A DNA stretch of 64,000 nt from Escherichia coli (GTDB taxonomy: Bacteria; Pseudomonadota; Gammaproteobacteria; Enterobacterales; Enterobacteriaceae). Numbering within the stretch: position 1 is the stretch's first letter; each line of letters opens with the position of its first letter. Under the pieces are notes generated by a model. It was not told the origin of the DNA. It made no database searches and was given only the letters and a program-made list of their open reading frames with translations. The DNA lies in the NCBI RefSeq assembly GCF_003018115.1, contig NZ_CP027457.1. One strand, written 5' to 3'. Shown here piece after piece: positions 6,347-50,756 of this stretch. Made by a program: the position numbers and the translations under genes.

Positions 6347-7056
6347 AAATTGAATTAACGGTGAATGGTCTGAAGGTACAGGCACAGTACCATGATGATG
6401 AGATAGAAAATGTACATAAACCGTTGCTGCGCATGTTGGCGGCCTTACAGACGGTAAATCCGCAGCGGCGTACGGTAGTTTTTCTTTGCGCTCCGCCGGG
6501 GACGGGGAAATCTACCCTAACCACCTTCTGGGAATATCTCGCACAACAAGACCCGGAACTACCCGCTATTCAGACGCTCCCGATGGATGGTTTTCACCAT
6601 TACAATAGCTGGCTGGATGCGCATCAATTGCGCCCCTTCAAAGGCGCACCAGAGACATTTGACGTTGCGAAACTGGCGGAAAATCTGCGCCAGGTAATGG
6701 AAGGGGATTGTACGTGGCCACAGTACGATCGACAAAAGCATGATCCTGTTGAAGATGCGTTGCACGTTACCGCACCACTCGTCATCGTCGAAGGAAACTG
6801 GTTGTTGCTGGACGACGAGAAGTGGTGCCAGCTTGCGCAATTTTGTGATTTCTCGATCTTTATCAACGCGCCAGCTACTGCGTTGCGGGAACGACTGGTG
6901 GGGCGCAAGCTGGCGGGAGGGTTATCGCTGGCAGACGCAGAAGCCTTTTATGACCGTACCGATGGGCCGAATGTTCGCCGGGTGCTGGAAGAGAGTCTGC
7001 CTGCACATTTGACCTTAATAATGACCGCTACGGGTGAATATCGTCTGGTGGATTAA
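6343..7056 (+). CDS. yggC: P-loop nucleoside/pantothenate-kinase-like protein (237 aa)
   Basis: GTG start overlapping yggD stop as GTGA; Walker A motif APPGTGKST; 3-prime end overlaps the convergent ATPase gene. Confidence 0.8.
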   Translation: MKIELTVNGLKVQAQYHDDEIENVHKPLLRMLAALQTVNPQRRTVVFLCAPPGTGKSTLTTFWEYLAQQDPELPAIQTLPMDGFHHYNSWLDAHQLRPFKGAPETFDVAKLAENLRQVMEGDCTWPQYDRQKHDPVEDALHVTAPLVIVEGNWLLLDDEKWCQLAQFCDFSIFINAPATALRERLVGRKLAGGLSLADAEAFYDRTDGPNVRRVLEESLPAHLTLIMTATGEYRLVD

Positions 7057-14066: not shown

Positions 14067-14167
14067 GCCTGATGCGCTACGCTTATCAGGCCTACACGTA
14101 TCCTGCAATATATTGAATTAGCAGGTTTTTGTAGGCCGGATAAGGCGTTCACGCCGCATCCGGCATG
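14067..14167. repeat. BIME: two REP palindromic units in inverted orientation
   Basis: gcctgatgcgctacgcttatcaggcctac and gtaggccggataaggcgttcacgccgcatccggcatg match the REP consensus. Confidence 0.8.
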
Positions 14168-15995: not shown

Positions 15996-16087
15996 GCGCT
16001 ATCTGATGGAAAAATAAAACAGAGGCGCTAAGCTTGCCTCCAGAGGTCCTGAATTTTGGGCAAGTCAATTAACACGGAGAGACTAAC

Positions 16088-16828
16088 GTGAAGTTCAAAG
16101 TTATCGCCCTGGCGGCATTAATGGGTATTAGCGGGATGGCAGCGCAGGCTAACGAATTGCCGGATGGACCGCATATTGTCACCTCCGGTACGGCAAGTGT
16201 GGATGCGGTGCCAGACATTGCCACTCTTGCGATTGAAGTTAACGTGGCCGCGAAGGATGCCGCTACAGCCAAGAAACAGGCAGATGAGCGCGTCGCACAA
16301 TACATTTCCTTCCTTGAACTCAATCAGATCGCGAAAAAAGATATCAGCTCAGCGAATTTACGCACCCAGCCAGATTATGATTATCAGGATGGTAAAAGTA
16401 TCCTTAAAGGCTACCGCGCTGTGAGAACGGTGGAAGTCACGCTCCGTCAGTTAGACAAACTGAATTCCTTGCTGGATGGCGCGCTGAAGGCGGGTCTTAA
16501 CGAAATTCGTTCTGTGTCGCTGGGCGTGGCGCAGCCGGATGCCTATAAAGACAAAGCGCGTAAGGCAGCGATTGATAACGCGATTCATCAGGCGCAGGAA
16601 CTGGCGAACGGCTTTCATCGTAAACTGGGGCCGGTATATAGCGTGCGCTACCATGTTTCCAACTATCAGCCCAGCCCAATGGTGCGGATGATGAAAGCCG
16701 ATGCCGCGCCGGTGTCCGCCCAGGAAACTTACGAGCAGGCCGCTATTCAGTTTGATGATCAGGTCGATGTGGTCTTCCAGTTAGAACCTGTGGATCAACA
16801 ACCCGCTAAAACACCTGCAGCACAATAA
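16088..16828 (+). CDS. yggE: DUF541/SIMPL-family periplasmic protein (246 aa)
   Basis: GTG start; N-terminal signal peptide MKFKVIALAALMGISGMAAQA. Confidence 0.85.
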   Translation: MKFKVIALAALMGISGMAAQANELPDGPHIVTSGTASVDAVPDIATLAIEVNVAAKDAATAKKQADERVAQYISFLELNQIAKKDISSANLRTQPDYDYQDGKSILKGYRAVRTVEVTLRQLDKLNSLLDGALKAGLNEIRSVSLGVAQPDAYKDKARKAAIDNAIHQAQELANGFHRKLGPVYSVRYHVSNYQPSPMVRMMKADAAPVSAQETYEQAAIQFDDQVDVVFQLEPVDQQPAKTPAAQ

Positions 16829-16834
16829 TACTTG

Positions 16835-16858
16835 TAGCCCGACGTATTCGTCGGGCTA
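16835..16858 (+). terminator. hairpin after yggE
   Basis: agcccgacg/cgtcgggct stem; weak T tail. Confidence 0.45.
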
Positions 16859-16994
16859 ATGCCTTTACCCGATATTGCCTCCTTTTTCTGTAATTTTCTG
16901 TAAAACCATGACGTAATCACCTATCTTTGCTCGCGGTTTCATCAAGGATAGGCTGACTGAAACGGTTAAGCGGACAAGGATGCGGGGGAGGGGG

Positions 16995-17891
16995 ATGGAC
17001 ATTTTTATTTCGAAAAAGATGCGCAATTTCATTTTATTAGCGCAAACCAATAATATTGCCCGGGCGGCAGAAAAAATCCATATGACGGCTTCGCCATTTG
17101 GTAAAAGCATTGCCGCGCTGGAAGAACAAATTGGCTATACGCTATTTACCCGCAAAGATAATAATATCAGCCTCAATAAAGCCGGACAGGAACTGTATCA
17201 AAAACTGTTCCCGGTTTATCAACGGCTTTCTGCGATTGATAATGAAATCCATAACTCAGGGCGTCGTTCACGAGAAATTGTGATTGGCATAGATAATACT
17301 TATCCGACAATTATTTTCGATCAGTTGATTAGTCTCGGAGATAAGTATGAAGGCGTGACCGCCCAGCCAGTTGAGTTCAGCGAAAACGGCGTTATCGATA
17401 ATCTTTTTGACCGCCAGTTAGATTTTATTATCTCCCCACAGCATGTATCTGCACGAGTTCAGGAACTGGAAAACCTGACTATCAGTGAACTACCACCGCT
17501 GCGATTAGGCTTTCTCGTTTCTCGCCGTTATGAAGAGCGTCAAGAGCAAGAGCTGCTTCAGGAGCTGCCCTGGCTACAAATGCGCTTTCAGAACCGGGCC
17601 AACTTCGAAGCAATGATTGATGCGAATATGCGACCTTGTGGGATCAATCCAACCATTATTTATCGTCCCTACAGTTTTATGGCCAAAATCAGCGCCGTGG
17701 AGCGCGGACATTTTCTGACGGTGATCCCGCATTTTGCCTGGCGACTGGTGAATCCGGCAACGCTGAAATATTTTGATGCGCCGCACAGGCCGATGTATAT
17801 GCAGGAATATCTTTATTCAATCAGAAATCATCGTTATACCGCCACGATGCTTCAGCATATTGCTGAAGATCGTGACGGGACGAGTCATTAA
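16995..17891 (+). CDS. ygfI: LysR-family transcriptional regulator (298 aa from ATG 16995; alternative ATG at 16980)
   Basis: N-terminal HTH followed by a LysR substrate-binding domain; G-rich SD before the 16995 ATG. Confidence 0.8.
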   Translation: MDIFISKKMRNFILLAQTNNIARAAEKIHMTASPFGKSIAALEEQIGYTLFTRKDNNISLNKAGQELYQKLFPVYQRLSAIDNEIHNSGRRSREIVIGIDNTYPTIIFDQLISLGDKYEGVTAQPVEFSENGVIDNLFDRQLDFIISPQHVSARVQELENLTISELPPLRLGFLVSRRYEERQEQELLQELPWLQMRFQNRANFEAMIDANMRPCGINPTIIYRPYSFMAKISAVERGHFLTVIPHFAWRLVNPATLKYFDAPHRPMYMQEYLYSIRNHRYTATMLQHIAEDRDGTSH

Positions 17892-19366
17892 CCCAGCATC
17901 GAGCCGGTTGCTATTAAATTACGGTGTAAGTCGAAGACGTGGCTAAGATCGTGGTGAATATGTCCGCCAGGCGCATTTTCCAGATAGCGATGCAGATAAT
18001 CCCGATACATAGGATGTGCACAATTATCAATGATAGTGCGGGCGCGTTGAAGCGGGGAAAGACCGCGCAGATCGGCGATCCCTTGTTCAGTGATGATCAC
18101 TTTGACGCTGTGTTCGCTGTGATCAACATGGCTGCACATTGGCACGACGGTTGAGATCTTGCCTTCTTTAGCAATCGACGGGGCCATAAAGATCGACAGA
18201 TACGCGTTGCGTTCAAAATCACCGCTGCCGCCGATGCCGTTCATCAGATCGACCCCGGCTACGTGCGTTGAGTTGGCATGCCCGTAAATATCAAACTCCA
18301 GGCCGACGTTCAGAGCGATGACGCCCAGACGACGGATGATTTCCGGGTTATTGGAAATCTCCTGCGGACGCAACACAATGCGGCTGGCAAAGTAATCCAT
18401 ATTGTCGTAAATCTTGCGCAGGGAATCGGCCGAGATTGTCAGGCTGGAGGCGCTGGCCCCGCTGATTTTGCCGGTTTCCAGTAAATGCACCACCGATTCC
18501 TGTAGCACTTCCGAATACATCATAAACGGAGGAATTTCCGGGTTTTCCCCCAGACGCGCCATTACCGCATTATTGATATTGCCCACGCCACTTTGCAGCG
18601 GCAGAAATTCCGGCGGAATACGCCCATGCGCCATTTCCTGCAACAAGAACGTGACCACGTTATCGGCAATCTGCTGGCACATGGGATTTTGCTTATCCAG
18701 CATATTACCGGCGTCGGGCAAGTTGGTTTCCACGACGGCGACAATCTTTTTCGGATCGATTTGCACATAGCGGGTACCGACGCGATCCATTGCATGGAAG
18801 ATCGACACGCTATTGCGCCGCGGTGGCGCGCCAGGAATCACAATATCTGCCAGTTCTGCAACGCGCGGATCGTGATAGTGATTAAGTTCAATGATCACTT
18901 TCTTCGCTCGCAGCAGCCAGGTCGGCGCATTACCGATCCCGCTGGTTAACCAGACTCGACCATCTGGTGCCAGTGCCGATGCTTCAATGACGGCAACATC
19001 AATGTCGCCGAAGAAACCGTAATTGACCATTTGCGCCACTTCGCTCAAATGCAGGTCAACGAAACTCACCGCGCCCTGATTGATCTTTTTACGTAAACCG
19101 GACGATGTTTGATATGGCGCACGCCAGGAAACAGCATCGGCGTCAGAAAGTACATCGTCAGCGGCGGCGCTGATTGACGCCCCCGTCAGCAGGCGAATTT
19201 GATACGGCTTTTTGGCCTCATGCTGTTCGTTAGCTCTGCGGGCAATCGCGGTGGGTAGGGCTTTCGGCGAACCCGCTGGGGTAAAACCGCTAAATGCCAC
19301 CATGTCGTTATGCTGGATAATTTCTGCCGCTTCATCGGCGGTCATCCTTGTCCACTGAGTTTCCAT
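17888..19366 (-). CDS. scpC: propionyl-CoA:succinate CoA transferase (492 aa)
   Basis: METQWTRMTADEAAEIIQHNDMVAFSGF N-terminus; acetyl-CoA hydrolase/transferase family. Confidence 0.9.
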   Translation of the reverse strand: METQWTRMTADEAAEIIQHNDMVAFSGFTPAGSPKALPTAIARRANEQHEAKKPYQIRLLTGASISAAADDVLSDADAVSWRAPYQTSSGLRKKINQGAVSFVDLHLSEVAQMVNYGFFGDIDVAVIEASALAPDGRVWLTSGIGNAPTWLLRAKKVIIELNHYHDPRVAELADIVIPGAPPRRNSVSIFHAMDRVGTRYVQIDPKKIVAVVETNLPDAGNMLDKQNPMCQQIADNVVTFLLQEMAHGRIPPEFLPLQSGVGNINNAVMARLGENPEIPPFMMYSEVLQESVVHLLETGKISGASASSLTISADSLRKIYDNMDYFASRIVLRPQEISNNPEIIRRLGVIALNVGLEFDIYGHANSTHVAGVDLMNGIGGSGDFERNAYLSIFMAPSIAKEGKISTVVPMCSHVDHSEHSVKVIITEQGIADLRGLSPLQRARTIIDNCAHPMYRDYLHRYLENAPGGHIHHDLSHVFDLHRNLIATGSMLG

Positions 19367-19389
19367 TTTTACTCCTTCGTTCGCAGGGA

Positions 19390-20175
19390 TTAATGACCAA
19401 CGAAATTAGGTTTACGTTTTTCGAGGAAAGCGTTCATCCCTTCCTGGTAATCTTCGCTGTCATAAACCGCGCGGCGCATCCCCTGAATACGTTCAAATTC
19501 ATCGGAGTTCATGGTGTGTGCTTCGCCCAGTACACGCAGCTCTTCTTTGATAACGGCAATGGCTAACGGCGCTTTCTCAGAGATGTGGTGCGCCATTTGT
19601 AAGGTGAAATCTTCCAGTTCTTCCACTTCCACAACATGGTTGAGGATGCCGACAGCCAGCGCGCGCTGGGCGGTGATTGGCGAAGCGGTAAAAATCAGCT
19701 CTTTGACAATGTGGAAGCCCGCGTCGCGGGTCAGGTTGTGAATGCCGACCAGGTTATACGGGACGCCGAGGTTTACAGGCGTCATTGAGAAGGTTGAGGT
19801 ACTGGCGGCGATGATCAGATCGGAACTCATGATCATTTCAAATGCGCCACCCCAAACACTACCTTCCACCATCGAAATGATCGGTTTCGGGAATTTTTGG
19901 ATCATGCGGGTGATTTGACGCAACGGATCATCATAGGAGAGCGGATCGCGACCGCCAGACGGCAGTTCGTGAATATCGTGACCTGCGGAGAAGACTTTGG
20001 ATCCACTCGGCGCGCGCAAAATGATACAGCGAATTTCCGGCCGGTTGAGATCGCTTAACGCCTGCATAAGATCATCAATAAAGACTTTACTTAAGGCATT
20101 AAGTTTTCGGCCATAGTTAAACTCAATGACCGCCACTTTGTTGATAGTGGCAACGTTCACATACTGATAAGACAT
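19390..20175 (-). CDS. scpB: methylmalonyl-CoA decarboxylase, crotonase family (261 aa)
   Basis: MSYQYVNVATINKVAVIEFNYGRKLNAL N-terminus; enoyl-CoA hydratase fold. Confidence 0.9.
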   Translation of the reverse strand: MSYQYVNVATINKVAVIEFNYGRKLNALSKVFIDDLMQALSDLNRPEIRCIILRAPSGSKVFSAGHDIHELPSGGRDPLSYDDPLRQITRMIQKFPKPIISMVEGSVWGGAFEMIMSSDLIIAASTSTFSMTPVNLGVPYNLVGIHNLTRDAGFHIVKELIFTASPITAQRALAVGILNHVVEVEELEDFTLQMAHHISEKAPLAIAVIKEELRVLGEAHTMNSDEFERIQGMRRAVYDSEDYQEGMNAFLEKRKPNFVGH

Positions 20176-20185
20176 AAAAATTCCT

Positions 20186-21181
20186 TTAATCAAAATATTG
20201 CGTCTGGATAAATTCACTGAGCTGCCGCAGGCCGGTGCGCGGTGAGAGCGTATTGTTTTTGACCGCTAAAAGCGTCTGGCGGTAATAGCGATCGAAATCT
20301 TCATTCGCGAACAGGTGATTCAGTACTTCTTCTTCGGTCTGCTTACGCAGCCATTCCACCGATTGTTGTTGCCGCACTTGTTGTAAACGACCACTGGCAG
20401 TTAGCGCGGTTTTGAAGTCGATGATGGCGTGCCAGATCTCATCGATTCCACGTTTTTCCAGTGCGCTACAAGTCAGAACCCGTGGCTGCCATTCGTCGTA
20501 TTTACGTCGCAGAATATGCAGGGCACTCTCGTACATATGCCGGGCAATGGCGACATTGGTATGGTTATCGCCATCGTCTTTGTTGATAACGATCAGATCA
20601 GCCACTTCCATCAGCCCTTTTTTAATGCCCTGCAGATCATCGCCGCCACCGGCAATTTGCAACGAGATAAAACAGTCCACCATGCGGGCGACTTCCGTTT
20701 CCGACTGCCCGACGCCAACCGTTTCGACAATCACTACGTCATAACCCGCCGCTTCGCATAACAGCATTAATTCCCGCGCTCGCTGACTGGCACCGCCCAG
20801 ATGACCGGAGGATGGTACCGGGCGAATAAACGCCGTCTCGGCACGCGCCAGGTCATTCATGCGGGTTTTATCCCCGAGAATGCTACCGCCAGTGACCGGA
20901 CTGCTGGGATCGACCGCAATAACCGCAACCTTTAATCCATCACGAATCAACAACATGCCAAAGGCTTCAAGAAAGGTACTTTTCCCCGCGCCGGGTGTGC
21001 CGGTAACGCCCAGTCGCAGGGCGTTACCGCAGTACGGCATAATGGCATCAAGCAGTTGCGTACTTAGCGCCTGATGACGCGGGTGACGGCTTTCCACCAG
21101 CGTCATGGCCTGGGCGAGTGTGGCACGCTCACCCTGACGTAAGCGGCGAATACTTTCTGCCAGCGTGGCTTCATTAATCAT
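20186..21181 (-). CDS. argK: methylmalonyl-CoA mutase-associated GTPase, MeaB-like (331 aa)
   Basis: P-loop [13 protein letters not shown]; start overlaps the sbm stop. Confidence 0.9.
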
Positions 21182-23318
21182 GATGCTGGCTTATCAGATT
21201 CAGTACGTCGCGCACACTGTCGAGCATAGGTGTACCTGGACCATAAATCGCCGCCACGCCGCGCTCTTGCAGGAAGGCGTAATCCTGCGGTGGAATGACG
21301 CCACCGGCGACTACGCAGATATCTTCGCGTCCCCATTTTTTCAGCGCTTCGACCAGTTCCGGGATCAGCGTTTTATGACCGGCAGCCAGTGAGGATGCGC
21401 CCACTACGTGAACGTCATTTTCTACTGCCAGGCGGGCGATCTCTTCAGGTGTAGAGAACATCGGGCTTAAATCTACGTCGAAACCGAGATCGGAATAGGC
21501 GCTGGCGATCACTTTCGCGCCGCGATCGTGCCCATCCTGGCCCATTTTGGCGATCAGAATGCGCGGGCGACGACCATTGTCGGCAAGGAACTGCTCCGTT
21601 TGCGCAACAATGGCATCGAACTCCGAGGCCGATTTCTCAGATTGATGATAGCTTTGCGCAATCACGCCGGTAACACACTGGCTTGGCACCAGATAACGGT
21701 CGAAAGCGGCTTCCAGCGCATCGGAAATTTCACCCAGGGTGGCGCGAACGCGAGCGGCATTAACAGCGGCAGCCAGCAGGTTTTCGTTATGCTGTGCGGC
21801 GTGAGTCAGGGCGTTCAACGCGGCGGTTACGGCGGCATCATCACGGGTGGCGCGAATGCGTTCCAGCGAAGCAATTTGCTCGTTACGCACCATCACGTTG
21901 TCGATCTCAAGTACATCGGTTTCGTCTTCGTGATCCAGTTTGTACTTGTTGACACCAACGATGACACGCTTGCCCTGGTCGATCAGCGACTGTTCGCGCG
22001 CTGAGGCCTCTTCGATCATTCGTTTTGGCAGACCTGCTTCGATCGCTTTCGCCATGCCACCGGCTTCGTCGATCTGTTGGATAATAGCTCTGGCTTGTTT
22101 GACGATTTGATCGGTCAGCGACTCAATGTAATAGGATCCGGCCAGTGGATCGACGGTGCGGCAGAGTTCTGATTCTTCCTGGATGATGATCTGGGTGTTG
22201 CGGGCAATGCGTGCGGAGAAATCGGTAGGCAAACCAAGCGCTTCGTCAAAGGCGTTGGTATGCAGTGACTGAGTACCGCCCAGCGTCGCAGCCAGTGCTT
22301 CAATGGTGGTGCGGATAACGTTGTTATACGGATCCTGTTCAGTCAGGCTCCAGCCTGAGGTCTGGCAGTGGGTACGCAGCGCCAGTGATTTCGGGTCCTG
22401 TGCGCCAAATCCACTGACCGCTTCGCTCCATAAATAACGTGCCGCACGCAACATGGCGACGTTCATAAACAGATCCATGCCGATGCCGAAGAAGAACGAC
22501 AGGCGAGGAGCGAAGTCATCAATTTTCAGTCCGGCAGAGATTGCTGCTTTGATGTACTCAATCCCATCAGCGAGCGTAAATGCTACCTGCTGCACGCAGT
22601 TGGCACCCGCTTCACCCATGTGGTAACCGCTGATACTGATGGTATTAAATCGCGGCATGTTGCCGGAACACCAGGCGATGATGTCGGCGATAATGCGCAT
22701 TGACGGTTTTGGCGGGTAAATATAGGTGTTGCGGCAGAGGTACTCTTTGAGGATATCGTTCTGAATGGTGCCGGTCAGTTTATCAGGTGTAACACCTTGC
22801 TCTTCCGCGGCGACGATATAAAACGCCAGTACTGGTAGCACTGCGCCATTCATGGTCATCGAAACCGACATTTTATCCAGCGGGATCTGGTCGAACAGGA
22901 CTTTCATATCTTCCACGGTGTCGATAGCGACGCCCGCTTTGCCGACGTCGCCCGCCACGCGCGGGTTATCGGAGTCGTAGCCTCGGTGGGTGGCAAGGTC
23001 AAACGCAACGGAAAGACCTTTTTGCCCGGCGGCCAGGTTACGGCGATAAAAAGCGTTGGACTCTTTTGCTGTTGAAAAACCAGCATACTGACGGATGGTC
23101 CACGGTTGGGCGGTATACATAGTGGCACGCGGGCCACGAACGTAGGGCGGCAAACCAGGAAGGGTACCTGTCACCTCCAGATTATCGAGATCGGCTTCGG
23201 TATACAGCGGCTTGATGGCGATCCCTTCCGCGGTTTGCTGAACCAGCGAGTCGACAGTTTTCTCCCGACGGCTCAATTCCTTGTTGGCAAGCTGTTGCCA
23301 CTCCTGCACGTTAGACAT
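21174..23318 (-). CDS. scpA: methylmalonyl-CoA mutase, B12-dependent (714 aa)
   Basis: [26 protein letters not shown]-terminus; mutase catalytic and C-terminal B12-binding domains. Confidence 0.9.
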
Positions 23319-23487
23319 TATTTGCTCCGTAAAACGCAATCAAAATGAGGGTATTTGCGCCTACGGTGAGCTTTTTACGTGGGTTTGTCGCCAGCAAAAA
23401 AAATGCATTCAGACGTCGTTTTTTGCCGCCTGAGATTTGTCTATTTTGTGATGTGATTCAAGGAATACAAAAAGAAGTGAGGACAAC

Positions 23488-23508
23488 GCCTGATATGTGC
23501 TATCAGGC
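23488..23508 (-). terminator. hairpin downstream of argP
   Basis: gcctgata/tatcaggc 8-bp stem with U-rich tail on the minus strand. Confidence 0.45.
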
Positions 23509-23521
23509 ATTATTTGATGGA

Positions 23522-24415
23522 TTAATCCTGACGAAGGACTTTGTGACCATAATCGAGTAACGCATCAGTGACTTTACGCATCATGCGGCTTTCAGGAGCA
23601 AAGCGGTGCCAGTAGAGCATCCGTCGTTGAAATAGCCCAGGCGTTAAGTCAATCAGTTCACCGCTGGCCAGCTCTTTCTCGATTTGCAGGTGCGGGATCA
23701 TACAGCAGGTGGTGCCCTGGCGAGCAAGTTGTACGAACGCTTCTGAAGAATTAACGATATGGCAGGGCACGCTGCCTGGAGGCAGATCGAAGTTTTGCTG
23801 CAAAAAGGCCTGGTGCATATCGTCAAGATGGTCAAACGCGACCACTGGCGCTTTCAGTAATGCCGAACGCGTTACGCCGTTAGGGAAATATTTTTCGGCA
23901 AAGGGTTTTGAGCTGACGAACAGATAGTCGAGCGCACCAAGTTTATCGACAAGACAACTCGGCAGCGCCTGATGTTGAATACTCACCGCGCCGACCACTT
24001 CGCCGCGGCGCAGACGTTCCTGAGTGCGGGTTTCATCTTCTACCTGCAAGTTGAGGCGGATAGGCGAATCAGCCAACACAGGAGCCAGTGCAGGAAGCAA
24101 CCACGTCGCCAGACTGTCGGCGTTGACCGCCAGTGAAAGCAGCAGCGGAGTCGAACCGGTTTGTTCATCGCCCAGCCACTCTTCTTCCAGCAACTCCACC
24201 TGGCGCAGCAGTGCCAGCAGTTTTTGACCTTGTTCCGTTGGGCGCGGCGGTACGGTACGCACTAACAGCGGCTGCCCGAACATATTTTCCAGTTGCTTAA
24301 TGCGCTGTGAGACGGCTGATTGTGTAATGCACAGCTTTTGTGCCGCGCGCTCAAATCCTCGTTCACGTATCACCGCATCCAGTGCCTGTAATGTTCTGTA
24401 GTCCGGGCGTTTCAT
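23522..24415 (-). CDS. argP: LysR-family regulator ArgP/IciA (297 aa)
   Basis: [44 protein letters not shown]-terminus. Confidence 0.9.
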
Positions 24416-24556
24416 TGCTGTTGTCTGCTCCTGGTAAATGCTTTTTCCTGCACTATGACACAATTTTGTGTCAGGTTGCATATACCGAAGCCGTCGGCGG
24501 GTAACATTTGTATTCGTGGTTAAACGCGCAGCTTAAAAGATCAGGGATTTGCGCTA

Positions 24557-24787
24557 ATGCATTTCGCTCAGCGAGTTCGCGCCCTGGTTGTGTTGAATGG
24601 CGTGGCGTTATTGCCTCAATTTGCCTGTAAACAGGGGCTTGCGAACGGTGAACTGGTGCGCCTGTTTGCACCGTGGAGCGGCATACCCAGATTGTTGCAT
24701 GCCTTATTTGCGGGGCGAAAGGGGATGCCTGCCATTGCGCGATATTTTATGGATGAGTTAACCACGCGGCTTGCCAACGGGGTCTGA
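24557..24787 (+). pseudogene. yqfE: C-terminal fragment of a LysR-family regulator
   Basis: 76-aa ORF resembling only the extreme C-terminus of a LysR substrate-binding domain, with no HTH; lies between argP and rpiA. Confidence 0.55.
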
Positions 24788-24842
24788 ATCGCTTTTTTTG
24801 TATATAATGCGTGTGAAATTTCATACCACAGGCGAAACGATC

Positions 24843-25502
24843 ATGACGCAGGATGAATTGAAAAAAGCAGTAGGATGGGCGGCACTTCAGTATGTTCAGC
24901 CCGGCACCATTGTTGGTGTAGGTACAGGTTCCACCGCCGCACACTTTATTGACGCGCTCGGTACAATGAAAGGCCAGATTGAAGGGGCCGTTTCCAGTTC
25001 AGATGCTTCCACTGAAAAACTGAAAAGCCTCGGCATTCACGTTTTTGATCTCAACGAAGTCGACAGCCTTGGCATCTACGTTGATGGCGCAGATGAAATC
25101 AACGGCCACATGCAAATGATCAAAGGCGGCGGCGCGGCGCTGACCCGTGAAAAAATCATTGCTTCGGTTGCGGAAAAATTTATCTGCATTGCAGACGCTT
25201 CCAAGCAGGTTGATATTCTGGGTAAATTCCCGCTGCCAGTAGAAGTTATCCCGATGGCACGTAGTGCAGTGGCGCGCCAACTGGTGAAACTGGGCGGTCG
25301 TCCGGAATACCGTCAGGGCGTGGTGACCGATAATGGCAACGTGATCCTCGACGTCCACGGCATGGAAATCCTTGACCCGATAGCGATGGAAAACGCCATA
25401 AATGCGATTCCTGGCGTGGTGACTGTTGGCTTGTTTGCTAACCGTGGCGCGGACGTTGCGCTGATTGGCACACCTGACGGTGTCAAAACCATTGTGAAAT
25501 GA
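24843..25502 (+). CDS. rpiA: ribose-5-phosphate isomerase A (219 aa)
   Basis: [32 protein letters not shown]-terminus; ATG at 24843. Confidence 0.95.
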
Positions 25503-27174: not shown

Positions 27175-27330
27175 ACGGTAAAGCCCTCACCGAAGCGAGG
27201 GCTTGAAGGAGAAGGGTTATGATGCGACTTGTCATCATACTGATTGTACTGTTACTCATAAGTTTCCCAGCTTATTAACAGTCAGTCTCAGGGGAGGAGT
27301 CATCCTCCCTTACCCTTACTCACTAAATTA
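27175..27330 (-). ncRNA. sibC: Sib-family antisense RNA (antitoxin) opposite ibs copy 1; ends approximate
   Basis: Inferred from the conserved Ibs/Sib architecture (antisense RNA spanning the whole toxin ORF and its SD); flanking hairpins at 27181..27204 and 27289..27310; ends not determinable from sequence alone. Confidence 0.4.
27219..27278 (+). CDS. ibsC: Ibs-family type I toxin peptide, 19 aa (MMRLVIILIVLLLISFPAY), copy 1
   Basis: ATG ATG start with GAAGGAGAAGGG SD; 19-codon hydrophobic ORF matching the Ibs family; below the ORF-track size threshold. Confidence 0.7.
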   Translation: MMRLVIILIVLLLISFPAY

Positions 27331-27359
27331 GGTCAAAGAATCAACGATGTCAATCAGGG

Positions 27360-27600: not shown

Positions 27601-27756
27601 ACGGTAAAGCCCTCACCGAAGCGAGGGCTTGAAGGAGAAGGGTTATGATGCGACTTGTCATCATACTGATTGTACTGTTACTCATAAGTTTCAGCGCTTA
27701 TTAACAGTCAGTCACAGGGGAGGAGCAATCCTCCCTTACCCTTACTCACTAAATTA
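27601..27756 (-). ncRNA. sibC: Sib-family antisense RNA opposite ibs copy 2; ends approximate
   Basis: Paralogous to the copy-1 region at about 90 percent identity; same inference. Confidence 0.4.
27645..27704 (+). CDS. ibsC: Ibs-family type I toxin peptide, 19 aa (MMRLVIILIVLLLISFSAY), copy 2
   Basis: Same SD and ORF structure as copy 1, 426 bp downstream; peptide matches IbsC as I recall it. Confidence 0.7.
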   Translation: MMRLVIILIVLLLISFSAY

Positions 27757-27804
27757 GGTTAAAGAATCAACGATGTCAATCAGGGCGATGCAGGTGTGTC
27801 GCCC

Positions 27805-50507: not shown

Positions 50508-50756
50508 AATTTCTCACATGTAATTCTGATCACTCATCATTATAGATAATTGAAGAGTGAAATGATTAACCAAGTGAGCGTTTATCGACAACCGCCCGTT
50601 TTGAGCGGATGTCGACAGGTAAAAACCATTTAAAAAAGTAGCATCATATATTTGAAGCGACTTTCAATGGCCATTGCAACACAGTCAGAAATGACAGGAA
50701 TAGAGAGAGTAAAAAGCAACAGCAGACTGAATATAGCGCGCATTAAAAAATTCATA

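Follow-up and report, generated by a model that had tools for sequence, protein, structure and literature searches.

An intact scpA-argK-scpB-scpC cluster with K-12 layout, convergent with srsR, in an Escherichia coli chromosome

INTRODUCTION

Methylmalonyl-CoA mutases are represented by P. shermanii MutAB and human MUT, both homologous to Escherichia coli ScpA (E values of ~1e-270 to PDB entries 1REQ and 2XIJ), and the G-proteins of the MeaB/MMAA type by Methylobacterium MeaB and human MMAA, which are homologous to E. coli ArgK (~1e-90 to 2QM7 and ~1e-78 to 2WWW). The locus described here shares with such systems a mutase gene lying next to the GTPase gene. The partners of the E. coli mutase gene are those for a crotonase-type decarboxylase and a CoA-transferase, in place of an epimerase and of a carboxylase or transcarboxylase; the mutase is one large polypeptide, and no gene of its own exists for a small (beta) subunit. 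The Wood-Werkman cycle found in propionibacteria runs through the same steps, from succinyl-CoA via methylmalonyl-CoA and propionyl-CoA to propionate, and is likewise closed by a CoA-transferase (PMC5512728). Compared to that cycle, the E. coli cluster includes neither methylmalonyl-CoA epimerase nor biotin transcarboxylase, and ScpB frees the carboxyl group as CO2 instead of transferring it.

The E. coli cluster has already been described under the name "sleeping beauty mutase" operon, and finding it again is a correct but ordinary observation. In K-12 MG1655, it comprises b2917-b2920 and lies beside srsR/ygfI (b2921). Nissle 1917 carries a degraded locus at the same argP-srsR position; it keeps a 5' portion of scpA, annotated at 927 nt and marked by small internal deletions, together with the final 153 nt of scpC. 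In strain O145:NM FWSEC0002, meaB is interrupted by an internal stop and scpA by a frameshift. The locus analyzed here has neither of these two lesions, nor the Nissle-type deletion.

RESULTS AND DISCUSSION

Gene content and intactness of the locus

The analyzed stretch of E. coli DNA (contig NZ_CP027457.1, 64,000 nt, referred to as the window) contains the following genes at the locus, with the evidence for each given in brackets.

16995-17891, plus strand: ygfI (srsR), LysR-family regulator of 298 aa, convergent with scpC (ORF 16980-17891, SrsR equivalog)
17888-19366, minus strand: scpC (ygfH), propionyl-CoA:succinate CoA-transferase of 492 aa (ORF with ATG start, K-12 match, TIGRFAM)
19390-20175, minus strand: scpB (ygfG), biotin-independent methylmalonyl-CoA decarboxylase of crotonase fold, 261 aa (ORF, K-12 match, NCBIfam)
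20186-21181, minus strand: argK (ygfD/meaB), mutase-associated GTPase of 331 aa (ORF with ATG start, K-12 match, NCBIfam)
21174-23318, minus strand: scpA (sbm), adenosylcobalamin-dependent methylmalonyl-CoA mutase of 714 aa (ORF, K-12 match, NCBIfam and Pfam)
23522-24415, minus strand: argP (iciA), upstream neighbor on the same strand (protein identical to K-12 b2916, annotation)

We put at about 0.93 the probability that positions 17888-23318 of the minus strand are the canonical chromosomal scpA(sbm)-argK(ygfD/meaB)-scpB(ygfG)-scpC(ygfH) cluster of E. coli, intact, in the K-12 layout and with activities as characterized in K-12. No observation spoke against this identification. The ORF list gave four minus-strand frames in tandem (261-714 aa), and ORFs, annotation and alignment agreed on the order mutase, MeaB-type GTPase, decarboxylase and CoA-transferase on one strand, flanked by argP and srsR. 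All four proteins matched curated family models far beyond chance, with E values from 1e-146 down to 0, and exceeded the specific NCBIfam cut-offs (three equivalogs and, for ScpC, the YgfH subfamily model), in agreement with the Pfam domains. The gene identities, their order and the end coordinates 17888-23318 proposed in the initial annotation were thus borne out by ORFs, annotation, K-12 alignment and family models.

The window was aligned without gaps to K-12 MG1655 (NC_000913.3) over 6,701 nt, sharing the genes, their order, strands and lengths, all four junctions and the 203-nt spacer upstream. The genes have the K-12 lengths of 2145, 996, 786 and 1479 nt (scpA, argK, scpB and scpC); all begin with ATG and end with TAA, and none contains an internal stop. 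Nucleotide identity at the gene level was ~99%, and the 51 base differences and 8 amino acid changes, none of them a frameshift or stop, were distributed over scpA (19 nt; H27Q and V537A relative to b2917), argK (13 nt; T54A, E81D and A116T), scpB (5 nt; V9A) and scpC (14 nt; N11D and V277E). Alignment to K-12 had been proposed as the check for frameshifts and premature stops; none was found over the 6,701 nt, and the claim that all four frames are intact holds.

The region is 100% identical in ETEC F9792 and O169:H41, where scpA, meaB, scpB, scpC and srsR are annotated. In the window-wide comparison with F9792, the operon region was the same except for one G in a G-run, elsewhere the identity was 98.1-99.9%, and the window carried an extra SIB repeat, which led us to reject F9792 as its source. 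Since the sequence recurs at 100% in five independent complete genomes, a frameshift masked by sequencing error is unlikely.

The junctions are tight. The argK ATG (21179-21181) and the scpA TAA (21174-21176) lie within ATGATTAA and give an 8-nt overlap of the two genes; this overlap, read directly from the sequence, and the 10-nt gap between the argK stop and the scpB ATG (20176-20185) were both as originally described. A 23-nt gap between the scpB stop and the scpC ATG (19367-19389), absent from the initial annotation, was added, and scpC has an AGGAG Shine-Dalgarno sequence. Two ORFs were extended at their 5' ends, scpA by a TTG start to 23339 and scpB by a GTG start to 20217; the K-12-equivalent ATG codons at 23318, preceded by GGAG at 23325-23328, and at 20175 give the proteins of 714 and 261 aa, respectively.

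Predicted gene products

ScpA scored 1252.3 bits against the NCBIfam equivalog NF006944 (cut-off 876) and combines the MM_CoA_mutase domain (PF01642) with a C-terminal B12-binding domain (PF02310), including the B12-binding motif DxHxxG as DGHDRG at residues 595-600. Among solved structures, human MUT (2XIJ) and the P. shermanii enzyme (1REQ) come closest to it. ArgK scored 494.7 bits against the MeaB equivalog NF006958 (cut-off 329), carries the P-loop GTPGAGKS at residue 61 (GxxGxGK[ST]) and NKDD at residue 200 (NKxD), as expected of MeaB proteins (NF006958/TIGR00750), and is near-identical to its closest solved structure, E. coli YgfD (PDB 2P67, E=6.6e-218). Judged by its sequence, the argK product belongs to the MeaB-type GTPases that accompany the mutase and is no arginine kinase.

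ScpB matched the equivalog NF008506 over its full length (residues 1-261) with 486.8 bits (cut-off 257) and is near-identical to the solved structure of E. coli YgfG (PDB 1EF8, E=5e-172). It carries H66, G110 and Y140, crotonase-fold residues whose roles are reportedly given in the paper on the 1EF8 structure. ScpC scored 754.5 bits against the YgfH subfamily model TIGR03458 (cut-off 658.7) and is composed of N-terminal and C-terminal AcetylCoA_hydro domains (PF02550 and PF13336), with a GIGGSGD motif at residue 377 and 2NVV and AarC (4EU3) as the closest solved structures. Its substrate preference is not decidable from sequence because the related succinyl-CoA:acetate transferase equivalog NF053853 was passed too (601.8 bits, cut-off 500).

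Predicted pathway and its physiological role

With the enzyme activities taken from the literature, the cluster would carry out a B12-dependent conversion of succinate to propionate, in the direction described for K-12 (pathway descriptions in PMC3850637 and PMC5512728). As in K-12, adenosylcobalamin-dependent ScpA would interconvert succinyl-CoA and methylmalonyl-CoA, with ArgK as its predicted MeaB-type GTPase partner. ScpB would then decarboxylate methylmalonyl-CoA, giving propionyl-CoA, and ScpC would transfer CoA from propionyl-CoA to succinate, releasing propionate and regenerating succinyl-CoA, so that the net reaction would be succinate to propionate and CO2. Judging from the literature, the operon would depend on B12 taken up from outside, as E. 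coli makes none. Expression in this strain is likewise expected to be weak, the native operon being described as hardly expressed, possibly from a weak or inactive promoter (PMC3850637).

The intact genes may serve something other than succinate-to-propionate fermentation, namely catabolic routes that supply or consume methylmalonyl-CoA and propionyl-CoA (for example, amino acid or odd-chain degradation), or the pathway may need an unlinked epimerase activity; we regard this as a serious alternative, though clearly the less probable one. ScpA is described as yielding methylmalonyl-CoA in its (R)-form, the (S)-form being the one used by decarboxylases of the ScpB kind, and the cycle may therefore be incomplete without methylmalonyl-CoA epimerase; in the same study, propionate production from glucose required an added epimerase, and the operon boosted the degradation of amino acids to propionate (PMC5512728). 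The metabolic context has also been called ambiguous (PMC3850637), and the strong purifying selection reported below shows that a function was kept, not which one. However, Haller et al. (via PMC5512728) coupled ScpA and ScpB in vitro to convert succinyl-CoA to propionyl-CoA, several engineering studies in which the operon was expressed with B12 yielded propionate or 1-propanol (PMC3850637), and the 64-kb window has no annotated epimerase gene.

Upstream spacer and regulation

Three features were delimited upstream of scpA.

23319-23521, minus strand: argP-scpA spacer of 203 nt, presumed promoter and leader (100% identical to K-12)
23485-23511, minus strand: hairpin directly past the argP stop, likely the argP terminator stem (inverted repeat, arms of 11 nt around a 5-nt loop)
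23396-23433, minus strand: second small hairpin followed by T8 (sequence and MFE fold)

The four genes are probably transcribed as one polycistronic mRNA starting in the 203-nt spacer, which fits the 8-nt overlap and the 10-nt and 23-nt gaps and otherwise follows the K-12 literature. A consensus scan of 23319-23521 on the operon strand gave no match of the sigma-70 type, and reading the spacer by eye yielded poor hexamer candidates only. No cobalamin riboswitch was detected in the window at the Rfam gathering score, the spacer gave no Rfam family of any kind at that score, and at E<=10 only chance-level Rfam matches, none of them a cobalamin riboswitch, were obtained in 23250-23600.

The spacer folds more stably than its shuffles (z=-3.94). 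The hairpin at the argP stop was detected by the terminator scan in plus-strand orientation and appears in the MFE fold as a stem of 13 bp. The second hairpin (7 bp with an 11-nt loop, 23409-23433) is followed 5 nt later by T8 (23396-23403), ~80-115 nt upstream of the scpA ATG; it went unreported by the scan, which allows loops of up to 8 nt, and is a possible insulator or attenuator.

Sites for control of the operon by the convergent LysR regulator SrsR were looked for upstream of scpA. No SrsR box TCAGATTTTGC (PMC9181523) was present in 23319-23521 within 2 mismatches, and the window-wide matches were at chance level (29, with 23.3 expected). No scp gene is mentioned in the SrsR paper (PMC9181523).

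Convergent scpC/ygfI junction

Two further features mark the downstream end of the cluster.

17888-17891, no strand assigned: palindromic TTAA holding both stops, a 4-nt tail-to-tail overlap (sequence)
17839-17878, no strand assigned: imperfect 40-nt inverted repeat within the last 55 nt of ygfI (repeat search and RNA fold)

The ygfI ORF reaches an in-frame ATG at 16980; the protein is identical to K-12 b2921, scored 635 bits against the SrsR equivalog NF047842 (cut-off 425), and is annotated as srsR in F9792 and K-12. The scpC TAA occupies 17888-17890 on the minus strand and the ygfI TAA 17889-17891 on the plus strand, which confirms the 4-nt overlap of the two stops reported initially. The same TTAA arrangement occurs in K-12 (3066277-3066280) and in every strain inspected. 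The overlap is real but unremarkable, as 3 of ~10 convergent junctions in the window overlap, the others being yqfG/yqfH by 4 nt (50630-50633) and another by 29 nt (7028-7056).

Because both stops share one TTAA, without intergenic space, each transcript must end inside the opposite gene. On the operon strand, the inverted repeat begins 10 nt past the scpC stop (arms 17839-17848 and 17869-17878), and the MFE fold of minus-strand RNA from 17680-17895 includes the long stem of this repeat, the region having z=-3.58 with 0 of 200 shuffles as stable. The hairpin is a candidate 3' end of the operon transcript.

Such an arrangement may suggest that the stop overlap is a regulatory device, in which srsR and scp interfere by convergent transcription, through antisense RNA or colliding polymerases, and the repeat at 17839-17878 serves both genes as a terminator lying within coding sequence. 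The forced ending of each transcript within the other gene, the stable hairpin, and the retention of the final 153 nt of scpC beside srsR in the B2-type deletion fit this, and a bioRxiv preprint (10.1101/2022.10.23.513370) discusses bidirectional termination through collision at convergent genes of E. coli. We nevertheless consider it unlikely: the hairpin has no canonical T-tract on either strand and was absent from the terminator scan output, the repeat does not vary among 9 strains and so gives no covariation evidence, overlaps at convergent junctions are frequent in the window, and the operon is reportedly barely transcribed (PMC3850637). No structured srsR terminator was found in the 3' end of scpC (plus strand, 17880-18060), which folds like its shuffles (z=-0.04). 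Slightly more doubtful still is the broader speculation that the repeat is a functional 3' end of the scp transcript, that the TTAA junction couples the stationary-phase regulator SrsR to the "sleeping" operon by convergent-transcription interference, and that purifying selection reflects a niche-specific role in the B12-rich gut and not a silent relic.

Retention, loss and selection across E. coli

Returning to the canonical, intact cluster, among 5,425 complete genomes of E. coli ~79% keep the operon, and ~21% (about 1,150), e.g., Nissle 1917, have an internal deletion of ~4.3 kb, spanning window positions ~18042 to ~22391 in the Nissle type. The operon is evidently dispensable in some lineages, since ~21% of complete genomes have deleted most of it. 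The strain analyzed here is of the majority type with the complete B12-dependent succinate/propionate module, which is relevant for predicting the short-chain fatty acid metabolism of gut isolates and for the choice of chassis in propionate, 1-propanol and PHBV engineering; beyond correct annotation, the finding has little importance.

In four strain comparisons where the operon is kept, the four genes all had dN/dS values of 0-0.14, with dS reaching 0.097; this points strongly to purifying selection on each of them, with some function maintained, though not indicating which one. It is a small reminder of selection on a "sleeping" operon in nature. That the cluster is a cryptic relic, transcriptionally silent, drifting to loss and with ORFs still intact by chance, would agree with its description as "silent" or "hardly expressed" (PMC3850637), the spacer without a sigma-70-like promoter, the frequent ~4.3-kb deletion and the damaged meaB and scpA of FWSEC0002, but is very improbable given dN/dS values unlike neutral drift, exactly equal gene lengths in the 7 strains compared and a ScpC protein identical between strains with ~2% DNA difference.

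Among the same 7 strains, the K-12 residues ScpC N11, ScpC V277 and ScpA H27 represent the rarer state, and D11 and E277 of ScpC the commoner one. V277E was considered as a damaging, window-specific change of ScpC and rejected, V277 being the variant, present in K-12 and RM14721. D81 of ArgK was the only substitution unique to the window.

Gene layout of the sbm operon

The sbm operon of the window, scpA (sbm)-argK (meaB)-scpB (ygfG)-scpC (ygfH), is a known and characterised locus in its commonest state, and its anatomy is the same as that of K-12 MG1655 throughout. A six-frame ORF list made for 16000-25500 contained the four genes as minus-strand ORFs in tandem, adjoined by the LysR-family regulator gene srsR (ygfI).

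Genes and junctions of the sbm operon and srsR
16980-17891, plus: srsR ORF; 16995-17891, 298 aa, from the K-12 start
17888-17891: scpC/srsR junction, TTAA, containing both stops, TAA of scpC (minus strand) and TAA of srsR (plus strand)
17888-19366, minus: scpC ORF, 492 aa, ATG start
19367-19389: scpB-scpC junction, 23 nt
19390-20217, minus: scpB ORF, 275 aa from an upstream GTG; 19390-20175, 261 aa, from the K-12 start
20176-20185: argK-scpB junction, 10 nt from stop to ATG
20186-21181, minus: argK ORF, 331 aa, ATG start
ATGATTAA: scpA/argK junction, 8-nt overlap, read directly from the sequence
21174-23339, minus: scpA ORF, 721 aa from an upstream TTG; 21174-23318, 714 aa, from the K-12 start

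The initial annotation had described an argK start overlapping the scpA stop, a 10-nt gap ahead of scpB, and scpC and srsR stops overlapping by 4 nt on opposite strands; with ORFs and junctions read from the sequence, all of its statements were therefore found correct, positions included. GGAG at 23325-23328 precedes the scpA ATG at 23318, and AGGAG precedes the scpC start.

Comparison with K-12 and ETEC genomes

Megablast with 16900-23600 matched 5,425 of the 5,426 complete E. coli genomes, with a 100% match in five records, the ETEC strains F9792 and O169:H41 among them. The matching stretch is annotated in F9792 and K-12 MG1655 as argP, scpA, meaB/argK, scpB, scpC and convergent srsR, with gene lengths and junction offsets equal to those of the window. 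In direct comparison, K-12 aligned without gaps over 6,701 nt and differed by 19 bases in scpA, 13 in argK, 5 in scpB and 14 in scpC, corresponding to 2, 3, 1 and 2 amino acids, respectively. ArgP and SrsR have the same protein sequences in both, and the 203-nt argP-scpA spacer is the same base for base. All four genes start with ATG, end with TAA and have no internal stops. Given the gapless alignment and absence of internal stops, the search for frameshifts or premature stops was thus negative, and the four reading frames are intact, as had been proposed.

Protein families and pathway

The curated cut-offs of specific NCBIfam models were exceeded by ScpA (NF006944, 1252 bits, cut-off 876), ArgK (NF006958, MeaB, 495 bits, cut-off 329), ScpB (NF008506, 487 bits, cut-off 257) and ScpC (TIGR03458, YgfH subfamily, 754.5 bits, cut-off 658.7), and the Pfam domains were consistent with these assignments. 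Motifs found were the B12-ligand motif DGHDRG in ScpA, the P-loop GTPGAGKS and NKDD in ArgK, and GIGGSGD in ScpC. ScpB carries H66, G110 and Y140, which we take to be the residues given roles in the 1EF8 structure work. ArgK is near-identical to the solved E. coli structure 2P67 (YgfD) and ScpB to 1EF8/6N92 (YgfG); among solved structures, ScpA comes nearest to human and Propionibacterium mutases and ScpC to 2NVV and AarC. Judged by its family, ArgK is the MeaB-type GTPase associated with the mutase, "argK" being a historical name.

The four-gene operon has been described as a cobalamin-dependent decarboxylation route from succinate to propionate, in which Sbm/ScpA converts succinyl-CoA to methylmalonyl-CoA, YgfG/ScpB turns methylmalonyl-CoA into propionyl-CoA, and YgfH/ScpC transfers CoA to succinate (PMC3850637). 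E. coli does not make B12, so that without supplied cobalamin the mutase is an apo-enzyme (PMC3850637), and one study obtained propionate from glucose only once an epimerase was added (PMC5512728). The interpretation in the initial annotation is the textbook one for a locus already known.

Retention and loss across E. coli

At least 80% of 17888-23318 is held by 4,273 of 5,425 complete genomes. The remaining 1,152 (~21%) hold less than 80% of the operon, mostly with ~20% of 17888-23318 left, and most of the reduced loci retain just the scpA 5' part and, of scpC, its last 153 nt. In Nissle 1917, the scpA 5' part (927 nt as annotated) is fused near these last 153 nt of scpC, with window positions ~18042 to ~22391 lost. 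Point lesions were seen in other lineages: in O145:NM FWSEC0002, meaB is interrupted by an internal stop and scpA is frameshifted, and srsR is a pseudogene in that strain, an O157:H7 genome and SCU-172.

Where kept, the operon is conserved. Gene lengths were equal in the seven operon-bearing strains compared, and dN/dS was 0-0.14 for each gene, with dS up to 0.097 (Nei-Gojobori; versus K-12, O157:H7, SCU-172 and SCU-301). The K-12 states ScpC N11, ScpC V277 and ScpA H27 were the rarer ones among the seven strains, and several of the eight K-12 amino-acid differences are K-12-lineage variants; the only residue unique to the window in this set was ArgK D81.

Convergent scpC/srsR overlap

The scpC/srsR overlap is the same in K-12 and every strain inspected. 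Of ~10 convergent CDS junctions counted in the window from annotation tables, three overlap, the others being yqfG/yqfH (50630-50633, 4 nt) and an ABC-transporter ATPase gene against a nucleoside/nucleotide-kinase-family gene (7028-7056, 29 nt); a tail-to-tail overlap of this kind is not unusual. It follows from the overlap that each transcript must end within the opposite gene. An imperfect inverted repeat of 40 nt (17839-17878) lies in the last 55 nt of srsR, 10 nt past the scpC stop, and is predicted to fold into a long stem (region z=-3.58). The repeat, a possible terminator, lacks a canonical T-tract, and its sequence was unchanged in nine strains. On the plus strand, no special structure was predicted past the srsR stop (z=-0.04).

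The argP-scpA spacer

A simple sigma-70 scan of 23319-23521 found no site on the operon strand, a result that is compatible with the description of a "weak promoter" but is no proof of it. The spacer as a whole folds more stably than its shuffles (z=-3.94) and matched no Rfam family, cobalamin riboswitches included, and no SrsR box.

Hairpins in the argP-scpA spacer
23485-23511: hairpin directly after the argP stop
23409-23433, minus: second hairpin, 7 bp, with T8 (23396-23403) 5 nt beyond it

The hairpin + T8 element (23396-23433, minus) precedes the scpA start by ~80-115 nt and is separate from the 23485-23511 hairpin. It could insulate scpA against argP read-through or act as an attenuator in the leader transcript.

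Other elements of the window

The G-rich tract GGGGGAGGGGG is located at 16983-16994, directly upstream of the srsR ATG. It reads G5AG5 in the window and K-12, and the second run is one G longer in F9792 and Nissle 1917; in F9792, this extra G is the sole difference from the window over 16900-23600. The tract may vary in length and be part of the srsR ribosome-binding region. In the window, an upstream ATG at 16980 shares the reading frame of the srsR ATG (16995), giving a 303-aa ORF.

A marginal Rfam match to the ES036 (CssrF) sRNA was found at 14088-14130 on the minus strand (40.0 bits versus a gathering score of 37.6, E=1.5e-4). Two full-length SIB RNAs (sib/ibs type I toxin-antitoxin) were matched by Rfam on the minus strand at 27203-27353 and 27629-27779, with 137.6 and 134.6 bits, ~426 nt apart; one sibC/ibsC occupies this locus in F9792 and in K-12. 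By blast, a 300-nt F9792 segment matches two places in the window, indicating a tandem duplication in the window strain.
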